From Minisyncoccota bacterium (GTDB lineage Bacteria; Patescibacteriota; Minisyncoccia; Minisyncoccales; JAQTVQ01): a stretch of DNA of 64,000 nt. Position 1 is the first letter of the stretch, and every line of letters begins with the position of its first letter. The stretch covers positions 3,510 through 67,509 of the forward strand of contig JAQTVQ010000002.1 of assembly GCA_028706715.1 (NCBI GenBank), in the 5' to 3' direction. The notes beneath the pieces were generated by a model. That model did not search any database. It saw only the letters and a list, made by a program, of their open reading frames with translations, and was not told the origin of the DNA. Position numbers and translations under genes: made by a program. This document shows positions 12,506-15,066 of this stretch, piece after piece.

Positions 12506-14005
12506 ATGCTTTATTCCAAAGAACAAATTAAAAAAATTATTCCTTACGACGATCCCTTTCTTTGGGTTGACGAGATAGAAAAGATAGAAGGAGACACTAT
12601 CTTCGGCTATAAGCAAACCTCTCCCAACGATTCTCATTTCAAGGGCCACTTTGTTGATTTTCCCATTATGCCCGGAGTTTTAGTGGTTGAAGGCCTTGCC
12701 CAAACAGGAACCCTTTTGCTCCGCGAAAAGCTGGGCGGAAACCATCAAGAAAAACATATCCTGGCTTATCAGGTAAGAAACACCCTGTTCTATTCGCCCA
12801 TAATGCCCGGGGACAAGATTAAATACAAAGTCAGGCTTCTCGGAACATACGGCGCTAAAATCTCCAACTTTGTCGGAGAAGCTTATGTTGGAGACGCCTT
12901 AAAGTGCGAGTTAAGGTTCTCCGCGGCAATAATGGACAAAAAAGAGATGAAAGAAAAGTTTCTAGCAAAAGAAAGAGGCTCTTCCCAAGAAAAGAAAAAA
13001 TTATTCAACCTTCCGGAACTAAAAGTGGGCAGGCTAAAGGCAAAGCTTCCTATTATTCAAGGGGGAATGGCTGTAAGAGTTTCCTTGCATAAACTGGCCG
13101 GAAATGTCGCCAAAGAAGGAGGAGTCGGAATTATCGCGGTTTCAGGAATGAAAGACTCAAGAGAAGTAAAAGAAGAAATCAAAAAAGCGCGCGAAATTGC
13201 AAAGGGAAACGGCGCAATCGGCATAAACATAATGGGAGTTGTCGGCCAGTTTAAACAACTGGTGGCGGCGGCGGTTGAAGAAAAAGTTGATCTTATAGTC
13301 CAAGGAGCCGGATTTCGCACCGATATTTTTGAAATGGCAGGAAAAGAATCCATTCCGGTTTTTGCGATGGCTTCGTCGGTAAAGGTGGCCAAAAAAGCGG
13401 AAGAAGCCGGAGCGTCGGCAGTCGTCATTGAAGGATGCGATGCCGGCGGACATTTAGGATTTCCCAAAGGACGCCCGTTCAAAAAAACAATAGATATTGT
13501 TAAAGAAGCCGTAAAGGAAGTCAAAATTCCCATTATAGCGGCCGGAGGGATTTTTGACGGAAAAGATATAGTTGAAATGCTAAAAGCCGGAGCAAAAGGA
13601 GTGCAAATGGCAACCCGTTTTGTCGCCACTGAAGAATGCGACGCAGACATAAAGTTCAAGCAAGCGCATATCAATGCCAAAAAAGAAGACGTGGTGATTA
13701 TCCATTCTCCGGTAGGACTGCCCGGCAGGGCCGTCAAAACTCCTTTTGTTGAAAAGCTGCTAAAAGGCTCCGCTCCAAAACCTGATCCGATTGAGTGCCA
13801 AGGATGCATAGGCCCAGTCTGCGATAAAAGCTATTGCATATTAAAAGTCTTGGAAAACGCCAGAAAAGGAGATTTGGAAAACGGATTGGTTTTCGCCGGA
13901 TCCAATGTATGGAGAGTCAACAAAATGACAACAGTAAAAGAGCTTATCAAGGAGCTGGTTGACGAGGCGAACGGAATACTGGCAAAAGAGCCTCTCTATA
14001 TATAA
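12506..14005 (+). CDS. Fusion protein: FabZ/FabA-type hotdog 3-hydroxyacyl dehydratase (N-terminal) plus FabK/nitronate-monooxygenase-type FMN enoyl reductase (C-terminal)
   Basis: The N-terminus [16 protein letters not shown]...[26 protein letters not shown] is the FabZ signature. The C-terminus [11 protein letters not shown]...[11 protein letters not shown]...[14 protein letters not shown] is NMO/FabK-like. Confidence 0.7.
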   Translation: [499 protein letters not shown]

Positions 14006-14020
14006 AAATTTCAATAACCA

Positions 14021-14045
14021 ATTTACCTGCCTACCGGCAGGCATT
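14021..14045. promoter_or_regulatory. Conserved palindromic intergenic element, copy 1 (TTTACCTGCCTaCCGGCAGGCA)
   Basis: Between the FabZ-FabK fusion stop (14005) and the fabK start. Near-identical to the copy at 18368..18396. Confidence 0.5.
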
Positions 14046-14133
14046 GGATTTTCAATGCTTCAATGATCAAACCGCATACGCTTATTTGAGAATTGAAACA
14101 TTATATTATTTATTGAAAATTAAAAATTGAAAA

Positions 14134-15066
14134 TTGAAAATTTATTCGCAGAATATGCCTGGAGAAAACAAACTTACAAAACTTCTGAATATAGGATATC
14201 CGATCATCCAAGGAGGAATGGCCGGTATTTCCGAATCAAAACTGGTTTCCGCGGTTTCCAATTCCAACGGACTGGGAACTATAGGAGCGGGACTGATGCC
14301 GGCTTCCTGGCTGGAGCAGGAAATCGTAAAAACGCGGCAGCTGACAGAAAAGCCTTTTGCGGTAAATCTTTTTATGCAAAATCCAAAGGTTGAAGAGATA
14401 GTTAAGACCATTATCAAAAATAAAGTTTCTATCGTCTTTATCGGAGGAGGAAATCCCATGCTCGTTATGCCTTACCTGAAAAACGCCGGAATAATTACAA
14501 TCCCAGTCGTTCCCTCTCCAAGGCTCGCGAAAAAAATGGAAGATAGCGGCGCGGACGCCGTAGTTGTTGAAGGAATAGAATCGGGAGGGCATCTTGGTCC
14601 AAATACCACTTTTTGCCTCATCCCCCAAACGGCAAAGCTAGTTGAAAAAATTCCCGTTATCGCGGCCGGAGGGATTTTTGACGGAAAGACTGCAGCAATG
14701 GCTATGGATGCCGGAGCCGACGGCGTCCAAATAGGCACAAGATTTTTGGCTGCTTCGGAGTGCGTTGTTTCTGAAAGCTACAAGCAAAGAATTTTGGACG
14801 CCTCCGCAGACGATATTGAGGTCGTCTTGGCTTTTACCGGCCACCCTTTGAGAGTAATCAAAAACAAATGGGCCGAAGATATGAAAAAGCTGGAAGCAAA
14901 AAACGTCTTCCCTGAAGAATTGAACGCAGGGAAAATAGCCGGATCCTTGGGAGGGGAGAATGTAGATAATATCCCTCTTTTGGCGGGATTATGCTCGGCA
15001 AGCATCAAGGAAATAAAATCCTGCCGGGAGATTATAGAAGAAATTGCCGAATCTTTAAAAAAATGA
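14134..15066 (+). CDS. fabK: FabK-like FMN-dependent enoyl-(acyl) reductase (nitronate monooxygenase family)
   Basis: [73 protein letters not shown]. Confidence 0.7.
   Translation: [310 protein letters not shown]

Follow-up and report, generated by a model that had tools for sequence, protein, structure and literature searches.

The 64,000-nucleotide stretch analyzed here (hereafter the window), from contig JAQTVQ010000002.1 of a Minisyncoccota bacterium (assembly GCA_028706715.1), encodes a 499-amino-acid protein in which a FabZ-like hotdog dehydratase is joined to a flavoprotein domain of the NMO (nitronate monooxygenase) family. Judged by sequence, predicted fold and tree position, this C-terminal domain belongs to the FabX clade, with flavin mononucleotide (FMN) and a predicted [4Fe-4S] cluster, and is not of the FabK type. 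The gene is part of a conserved lipid gene cluster of the candidate phyla radiation (CPR), bacteria with tiny genomes. Our leading, though tentative, interpretation is that the fusion couples a dehydratase to a FabX-type enoyl isomerase in the unsaturated branch of a synthase that probably uses coenzyme A (CoA) thioesters. In the literature searched, no paper was found on a FabZ-FabX or FabZ-FabK fusion, or on an explanation of the CPR cluster. What is new is a domain architecture, built from known families, in a context apparently free of acyl carrier protein (ACP).

The fusion protein and its relatives

A Pfam search of the 499 residues returned a FabA-like domain (PF07977, amino acids 16–130, E=3.6e-19), an NMO domain (PF03060, E=2.4e-54, 185 bits), and no others. 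IMPDH and DHO_dh were rejected as assignments of the C-terminal domain, as they scored 33 and 31 bits, far below NMO; no other TIM-barrel family exceeded 33 bits. These results bear out much of a preliminary description of the locus, which had proposed a single polypeptide with a FabZ-type N-terminus: the frame is continuous, both open reading frames (ORFs) that it named, the fusion and a following stand-alone gene, are present, and all of the motifs that it quoted were found. In an AlphaFold2 (AF2) model, mean pLDDT is 88.2 and falls below 50 only at residues 157–162 of the linker.

The architecture is widely conserved within one group of bacteria. A search of 5.8 billion proteins recovered more than 120 clusters of full-length fusion homologues with 69–87% identity; those with a named host come from Candidatus Paceibacterota, Pacebacteria or Parcubacteria, and they are publicly annotated as "nitronate monooxygenase," a name that the FabX-type identity corrects. 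Among 1.84 billion representatives at 50% identity, the whole family forms a single cluster (P0005). The fusion occurs as one ORF in 16 further loci from metagenomes and GTDB genomes, all of them CPR/Paceibacteria, and the GTDB species genomes contain it in 11 CPR genomes (66–75% identity). Mean pairwise identity is 75% in the hotdog and 74% in the NMO part, and drops to 39% in the 30-residue linker. The two domains meet where FabZ has its natural C-terminus and FabX its natural N-terminus. Because the same architecture recurs in the clusters and in the 16 loci, with both domains equally conserved, a frameshift or missed stop between two genes is excluded. More broadly, the notion that the fusion is an artefact of frameshift, missed stop or chimeric assembly has a negligible probability. 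Nothing supports it directly; a frameshifted gene just upstream shows that errors or decay occur in the window, but the homologues are independent and come from many samples, the frame is unbroken, and the junction lies at natural domain ends between two equally constrained domains.

The hotdog domain shares its fold with FabZ and FabA and matches Campylobacter jejuni FabZ (3d6x) with a TMt of 0.92 in a Foldseek search with the model. It retains the FabZ-type catalytic residues His48 and Glu62 and the gatekeeper Tyr, which are invariant in 136 of 136 fused hotdogs. On the other hand, it scores below the FabZ equivalog cut-offs (TIGR01750, 98.5 bits against 155; NF000582, 101.1 against 113), and aromatic or aliphatic residues replace the Arg/Lys residues with which FabZ docks ACP. 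At the level of sequence and fold, the N-terminal domain is equipped with the residues for dehydration of (R)-3-hydroxyacyl thioesters, a reaction that yields trans-2-enoyl thioesters.

FabX of Helicobacter pylori, a flavoprotein of the NMO family, binds an atypical [4Fe-4S] cluster through C300, C304, C308, and C320; these lie in a C-terminal subdomain, which takes the place of the NAD(P)H motif of FabK (PMC8626469). The cluster closes the acyl tunnel, which holds approximately C8–C10; the enzyme dehydrogenates decanoyl-ACP and isomerizes trans-2- to cis-3-decenoyl-ACP for unsaturated fatty acid (UFA) synthesis (PMC8626469). The isomerization step is independent of O2.

Several lines of evidence place the fused domain with FabX. 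The best PDB match of residues 168–486 is H. pylori FabX (HP0773; 7E1Q; phmmer, E=2.3e-53, 185 bits), against 129 bits for the best FabK. Foldseek with the fusion model ranked FabX entries first (E ~1e-31 to 1e-28), with FabK structures at ~1e-27 and weaker. Identity is 42% to H. pylori FabX and 33% to the neighboring FabK, and the FabK equivalog TIGR03151 yields 183.8 bits against a cut-off of 453. Four cysteines (C431, C434, C439, and C444), invariant in 120 of 120 family members, align with the FabX ligands, and the motif is deleted in the neighboring FabK. The FMN-contact residues and the catalytic His316 (FabX His182) are conserved, and the residues at the tunnel end (V305/I321/L325/F339 in FabX) are I/I/L/F in all 16 fusions and different in FabK. 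In a neighbor-joining (NJ) tree of 137 NMO domains from the fetched loci, the FabX clade comprises 69 stand-alone sequences, the 16 fused domains, which form one group, and H. pylori FabX; the four-Cys motif is present in 86/86 of these and in 0/51 members of the FabK clade. At sequence and fold level, the domain is a FabX-type flavoprotein with FMN and a dead-end acyl tunnel, which a predicted [4Fe-4S] cluster would close off. The earlier assignment to a "FabK/NMO-type enoyl reductase" was right as to the NMO-family TIM barrel and has to be replaced as to the FabK type. FabK (Streptococcus pneumoniae 2Z6I, Clostridioides difficile 7L00) belongs to the same NMO/FMN superfamily and has the same catalytic GGH motif; the fused domain lies in the sister clade, and at the NAD(P)H-binding site of FabK it has an Fe-S subdomain instead.

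Compared to H. pylori FabX, the fusion has the same TIM barrel, FMN contacts, catalytic His, four-Cys subdomain and tunnel-closing hydrophobic residues. It differs by the attached FabZ, by the spacing of the cysteines (x2/x4/x4 instead of x3/x3/x11), and by the lack of the α7 insertion that carries the ACP fulcrum R164, an insertion that most homologues in anaerobes lack as well. Of the ACP contacts of FabX that were compared (K152, R160, and R164 of α7, and T130), the fusion keeps K152. The R164 insertion is also absent from 65 of 69 stand-alone homologues that sit next to acpP, so that the α7 comparison points neither way; positions 130, 156, and 159 (FabX numbering) do differ between the fusion and the stand-alone acpP-linked homologues. 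The host is an anaerobic CPR bacterium, in which the O2-dependent dehydrogenase half of the reaction is improbable. The surrounding genes include none for ACP.

The combination of a FabA/FabZ-like dehydratase with an NMO-family flavoenzyme is shared with the dehydratase-enoyl reductase (DH-ER) pairs of polyunsaturated fatty acid (PUFA) synthases and trans-acyltransferase (trans-AT) polyketide synthases (PKS), and the preliminary description had drawn this analogy. It proved superficial. In the fold search, PfaD and the MlnA ER came no higher than ranks 42 and 47 (E ~1e-13 to 1e-14), and they lack the Fe-S subdomain of the fusion; TIGR02814 in NCBIfam gave no match for the fusion, and no ketosynthase (KS), AT or ACP domains are attached to it. 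The DH-DH-ER subunit of thraustochytrids is another DH-ER arrangement of PUFA synthases.

The stand-alone gene downstream of the fusion, in contrast, encodes a canonical FabK. It matches NMO in Pfam (E=7e-69, 233 bits), its best PDB match is C. difficile FabK (7l00, E=1e-76, 262 bits) with FabX at only 62 bits, and it falls within the FabK clade without the Cys motif; its TIGR03151 score is 308.6 bits, below the cut-off. The "two FabK paralogues" first described are thus one FabK and one FabX-type domain. Their distant similarity, also claimed at first, is borne out by the 33% identity, and it is plausible that the two do different jobs. In most relatives, the fusion and fabK abut or overlap, unlike in the window, where a 128-bp gap separates them; this gap contains a GC-rich hairpin (CCTGCC-TACC-GGCAGG, 14026–14041, + strand).

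Outside the CPR, the GTDB scan found many stand-alone FabX-like genes (44–51% identity), in hosts that include Negativicutes, Desulfotomaculaceae, Syntrophomonas, Heliorestis, Saganbacteria, Coriobacteriia, and Fusobacteriaceae. Altogether, 87 loci were annotated with phmmer seeds. Approximately 47 of the 69 stand-alone genes lie in type II operons of the order fabH-(fabK)-fabD-fabG-acpP-fabX-fabF; in many strict anaerobes, the four-Cys gene sits between acpP and fabF, for instance in Veillonella rogosae (L036), Sporomusa malonica (L083), and Heliorestis (L023). Four apparent full-length matches, from Atribacterota (L020, L030) and Lachnospiraceae (L068, L076), were rejected as fusions, since they consist of two ORFs, fabZ followed by a fabX-like gene, 4–16 bp apart. 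These pairs end fabK-fabD-fabG-fabF operons (fabF-fabZ-fabX) and are the unfused counterpart of the CPR fusion; in the tree, their FabX-like members cluster with that of H. pylori. Given the 47 genes in classical type II operons and the four fabF-fabZ-fabX arrangements, FabX-type proteins are regular components of fatty acid synthesis (FAS) in anaerobes, usually beside a canonical fabK and repeatedly tied to fabZ. In nine fabX-like operons (L022, L031, L038, L045, L051, L055, L058, L066, and L070), no fabK was seen in the fetched region, and the FabX-like protein could be the enoyl reductase there. Other long NMO matches were rejected as hotdog fusions, as they have MarR, QRPTase or TPR N-termini, or C-terminal extensions. 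Two of them (P0141 and P0267, ~500 amino acids) join an N-terminal MarR-type winged helix to a FabX-like NMO domain; they may be fusions of a regulator with an enzyme, or else artefacts of gene calling.

The CPR gene cluster and its acyl carrier

In the window and the 16 further CPR loci, the order runs from thiolase through DUF359 (in some of the loci), DUF35/DUF362 and FabG to a variable slot, which is followed by the fusion, FabK, one or two copies of PlsC, and an acyl-CoA carboxylase set, often with PlsY and DegV at the end. The fabK gene is in the same operon as the fusion, PlsC follows FabK, and the carboxylase order (biotin carboxylase, biotin carboxyl carrier protein [BCCP], biotin ligase, carboxyltransferase) is kept in all CPR loci. 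A thiolase and a DUF35-fold protein are present in 17 of 17, in strict synteny with fabG and the fusion in 15. Upstream in the window, a 597-residue FakA-DegV ORF, in which a single chain unites the two subunits of fatty acid kinase (the kinase and the one that binds fatty acids), completes this lipid "super-operon."

The thiolase is of the DUF35-partnered type, with 7yvy, 6esq (the thiolase of a thiolase/HMGCS/DUF35 complex), BbsB, and PhlC as best PDB matches. Its neighbor joins a DUF35 part to DUF362 (AF2, pLDDT 92.6). A Pfam search did not recover DUF35 in this ORF; the domain was seen only through the model and the fold search, in which the N-terminal ~105 amino acids match the DUF35 subunits BbsA, 6esq_G, PhlB, and ChsH2. 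The four Cys of its Zn-ribbon are invariant. The DUF362 part has a fold like LarA (E ~1e-5), as in the LarA-type nickel-pincer racemases. This two-part family, with 285 matches, is apparently CPR-specific and always adjoins the thiolase. The DUF359 gene lies on the opposite strand at the same position in the window and six loci (L003, L004, L013, L014, L016, and L017); its product is closest to archaeal GTP-dependent dephospho-CoA kinase, with NF041125 as top NCBIfam match (66 bits, below cut-off).

Most relatives have no gene in the slot that separates fabG from the fusion; in L003/L004, L010, and L016, it is filled by a cyclopropane-fatty-acid (CFA) synthase gene. In the window, it holds a gene of the ornithine cyclodeaminase (OCD)/mu-crystallin family whose C-terminal part is in another frame, which makes it either a pseudogene or a sequencing error; an intact OCD gene stands between the fusion and fabK in L018.

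The gene set is also present in Minisyncoccus archaeiphilus, the only cultured strain of Paceibacteria type, as a run of thiolase (MNSC_05910), DUF362/COG1545 (05920), FabG (05930), the NMO plus FabA-like fusion (05940), FabK (05950), and AccC (05970). Its describers regarded the FAS pathway as incomplete and the role of these genes as unclear, a remark that is all our literature search found on fatty acid synthesis genes in CPR. Their gene inventory lists no ACP or KS, and the available part of the supplement contained no match to ACP, KS, or malonyl terms.

Which acyl carrier the cluster uses was approached through gene content and docking residues. None of acpP, fabD, fabH, and fabF was found with phmmer seeds within 9–10 kb of the 17 CPR loci, and phmmer and motif searches detected no ACP in the 64-kb window; acpP is in the operon in the ~47 canonical loci, versus 0/17 in CPR. 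For FabG, the Escherichia coli enzyme reportedly cannot bind ACP without R129 and R172 (cited in PMC13293336). Position 172 is F or L in 16/16 CPR copies and R in 47/47 copies from acpP operons; position 129 is Q in 12, K in three and R in one of the 16, and R or K in the 47; position 127 is never basic in the CPR copies and K in all 47. The catalytic Ser/Tyr/Lys triad of the CPR enzymes is intact. H. pylori FabZ, in turn, binds ACP through R110 and K129 (PMC5143422), and the equivalent residues are Y/V/L/F and Y/H/W, respectively, in 136/136 fused hotdogs. FabZ from five canonical operons has K at the first position in 5/5 and at the second in 4/5. The numbering of the H. pylori FabZ and E. 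coli FabG reference sequences reproduces all residues named in PMC5143422 and PMC13293336. As far as sequence goes, both docking comparisons argue against a classical acidic ACP.

A precedent for FAS of another kind exists in Sulfolobus acidocaldarius, with a ketothiolase/DUF35 pair, a FabG-like reductase, a MaoC dehydratase, and a medium-chain dehydrogenase/reductase (MDR)-type enoyl-CoA reductase (bioRxiv 10.1101/2024.07.05.601840). The CPR cluster resembles it in the DUF35-partnered thiolase and DUF35-fold protein adjoining a FabG-like reductase, in the lack of ACP and KS nearby, and in its presumed CoA thioester substrates. It differs in having a FabZ-type dehydratase instead of MaoC and a FabK instead of an MDR reductase, in adding DUF362 to DUF35, a FabX-type domain and an acyl-CoA carboxylase, and in its bacterial host. 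Because the ACP-docking residues are lost, the thiolase/DUF35 pair is present, and the archaeal system provides a precedent, we consider it somewhat probable that the CPR cluster would run a CoA-based cycle and not one based on ACP. The embedded dephospho-CoA-kinase-like gene is counted toward the same context. Two points weigh against this reading: FabG2 of Xanthomonas campestris lacks R129/R172 and still acts on ACP substrates (PMC13293336), and the absence of ACP and KS refers to ~10-kb flanks and one 64-kb window.

The cluster could instead be the remnant of an ordinary ACP-dependent type II system whose ACP, AcpS and KS are encoded elsewhere, with the thiolase and DUF35 serving another pathway. 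The nearest families of all three Fab-type proteins depend on ACP, stand-alone FabX-like genes adjoin acpP in ~47 operons, and the CPR loci were inspected over ~10 kb on either side. This explanation is unlikely, however, as the basic docking residues have been lost from FabG and from the FabZ domain (136/136) while the catalytic residues were kept, 15 of 17 loci show strict synteny of thiolase and DUF35 with fabG and the fusion, genes for Fak, PlsY, PlsC, Acc, and BirA are concentrated here without acpP, and the Minisyncoccus inventory has neither ACP nor KS. In any case, the nature of the carrier is orthogonal to the catalytic question.

Proposed reaction and competing explanations

In the proposed reaction, the hotdog domain would convert an (R)-3-hydroxyacyl thioester to the trans-2-enoyl thioester, which the FabX-type domain would take straight from the fused dehydratase and isomerize to the cis-3 species. 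This step, the O2-independent half of the FabX reaction, would be the unsaturated branch point, and the canonical FabK would reduce the remaining trans-2-enoyl intermediates for saturated elongation. The operon would feed the acyl chains to PlsC, most likely as CoA thioesters. The fusion would then be a two-domain functional analogue of FabA: the overall chemistry (dehydration plus trans-2/cis-3 isomerization) would be equal, but the isomerization would fall to the attached flavoprotein domain and not to the hotdog itself.

An isomerase is preferred because FabX, the only characterized member of the family, is a UFA enzyme, because a fused reductase would be redundant with the co-encoded FabK, and because the domain is repeatedly tied to FabZ by fusion and adjacency. 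Further, the conserved tunnel, capped and limited in chain length, suits a branch-point enzyme better than a general reductase, and the FabX-type domain is the single "extra" activity in a minimal four-step cycle. The CFA synthase found next to the fusion in some loci points to unsaturated products, since this enzyme needs cis-unsaturated chains.

Several observations weigh against an isomerase. The function is extrapolated from one characterized homologue with 42% identity, and the altered cysteine spacing leaves cluster binding as a prediction. Overexpression of the FabX homologue of Fusobacterium nucleatum partly rescues FabK inhibition, so some FabX types may reduce enoyl thioesters, and FabX-like proteins could likewise be reductases in the several canonical operons without a nearby fabK. 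Nor does the scheme account for an acyl-CoA carboxylase next to a thiolase that is non-decarboxylating.

The main rival is a true DH-ER didomain, in which electrons would reach FMN through the [4Fe-4S] cluster, for instance from ferredoxin, and not from NAD(P)H, providing a second enoyl reductase beside FabK with another donor or chain-length range. The dehydrogenation catalyzed by FabX is the reverse of enoyl reduction, O2 is not a possible acceptor in anaerobes, the NAD(P)H motif of FabK has given way to an Fe-S subdomain, and Minisyncoccus encodes a 2-oxoacid:ferredoxin oxidoreductase. The nine FAS operons without nearby fabK also favor it, as does the eightfold increase in the minimum inhibitory concentration of a FabK inhibitor upon overexpression of the F. 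nucleatum homologue, although the authors of that work judged FabX unable to replace FabK. However, a canonical FabK in the same operon in all CPR loci would make a second general reductase redundant, a dead-end tunnel capped by an Fe-S cluster is ill-suited to a reductase that accepts C4–C18, and the co-located CFA synthase points to unsaturated products. We therefore regard a reductase as rather doubtful.

The genes might also form a catabolic module, in which the FabX-type domain dehydrogenates, the hotdog hydrates, and FabG in reverse and the thiolase complete a route resembling β-oxidation for scavenged fatty acids. Acyl dehydrogenation is a characterized FabX activity, hotdog dehydratases are reversible, and the cluster has both a thiolase and an uptake system of Fak type. 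Nevertheless, this is highly improbable: the acyl-CoA carboxylase, biotin ligase, PlsC, PlsY and NADH-type enoyl reductase of the operon are all biosynthetic, FabZ and FabG have the (R) stereochemistry of the biosynthetic form, and it is not obvious what would accept the high-potential electrons from acyl dehydrogenation in fermentative CPR bacteria.

Paceibacteria are generally held to be fatty acid auxotrophs, and CPR bacteria to depend on hosts for lipids. The cluster hints that these supposedly fatty-acid-dependent organisms make or modify fatty acids by an unusual route, and points to a possible ACP-free, thiolase-driven FAS in bacteria. In its most far-reaching form, which we put forward as a possibility with the odds against it, Paceibacteria would carry a self-contained, ACP-independent FAS (thiolase/DUF35-DUF362, FabG, the FabZ-FabX fusion and FabK, acting on CoA thioesters) with the fusion as its O2-independent desaturating branch point. 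If true, this would be a bacterial counterpart of the archaeal FAS complex and a new two-domain solution to anaerobic UFA synthesis, and these symbionts would make at least part of their own membrane acyl chains. If CoA substrates are truly used, the cluster would also offer a compact set of parts for engineered synthesis resembling reverse β-oxidation with a built-in unsaturation step. The link of FabZ to FabX, by fusion in CPR and by adjacency in Atribacterota and Lachnospiraceae, bears on O2-free UFA synthesis in strict anaerobes with FabX homologues. The fusion by itself is moderately interesting; the cluster would surprise specialists.

Features of the window

The features of the fusion gene and of the surrounding cluster are listed in Table 1.

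Table 1. Coordinates of the fusion gene, its functional elements and the surrounding lipid genes (positions in the window).
Feature	Position	Strand	Basis or remarks
FakA (Dak2) fused to DegV, 597 aa, fatty acid kinase-like	5895..7688	+	Pfam Dak2, FakA-like_M, DegV; NCBIfam FakA/FakB1 below cut-off
Thiolase, DUF35-partnered (archaeal/SCP2) type	7850..8971	+	Thiolase_C_1, E=4e-44
DUF359, related to GTP-dependent dephospho-CoA kinase	8964..9464	-	PF04019, E=6e-24
DUF35 (Zn-ribbon and OB) fused to DUF362, 343 aa	9557..10588	+	AF2, fold search
FabG-like 3-ketoacyl reductase (short-chain dehydrogenase/reductase)	10606..11349	+	TIGR01830, 287.6 bits
Ornithine cyclodeaminase/mu-crystallin family gene	11441-12500	+	split by frameshift near 12130
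Whole fusion gene, 499 aa: FabZ-like hotdog, linker, FabX-type NMO domain	12506..14005	+	ATG start; Pfam, AF2
FabZ-like hotdog dehydratase domain, aa 1-145	12506..12940	+	PF07977, Foldseek
Catalytic His48	12647-12649	+	
Glu62	12689-12691	+	
Inter-domain linker, aa 146-175, helix then low-confidence stretch	12941..13030	+	pLDDT, identity
FabX-type NMO/FMN TIM barrel with C-terminal Cys-cluster subdomain, aa 176-499	13031..14002	+	phmmer, Foldseek, tree
Catalytic His316	13451-13453	+	
C431-x2-C434-x4-C439-x4-C444 motif, predicted [4Fe-4S] ligands	13796..13837	+	alignment to FabX
Canonical FabK-type enoyl reductase, 310 aa	14134..15066	+	TTG start; Pfam, NCBIfam, phmmer, tree
PlsC-type acyltransferase	14991..15719	+	PF01553, E=1.8e-27
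Acyl-CoA carboxylase set	15724..19957	+	biotin carboxylase 15724-17253, BCCP 17306-17689, biotin ligase 17729-18277, carboxyltransferase 18398-19957; Pfam, NCBIfam
DegV/FakB-like fatty-acid-binding protein	19968-20837	+	Pfam, NCBIfam
PlsY acyl-phosphate:glycerol-3-phosphate acyltransferase	20839-21498	+	Pfam, NCBIfam

Upstream of the lipid cluster, a defense island (1305–4395, + strand) encodes an N6-adenine methylase-like ORF, an R.Pab1-type restriction endonuclease, and an AbiEii-type toxin. Further downstream, two large ORFs on the + strand (25462–27180, 572 amino acids; 31204–33381, 725 amino acids) have no Pfam match at E<=0.001. The + strand also encodes a TrbC/VirB2 type IV secretion pilin-like protein (21817–22248) and a TraG/VirB4-like P-loop ATPase (36178–37947), genes that are typical of the cell-surface or DNA-uptake machinery of CPR bacteria.

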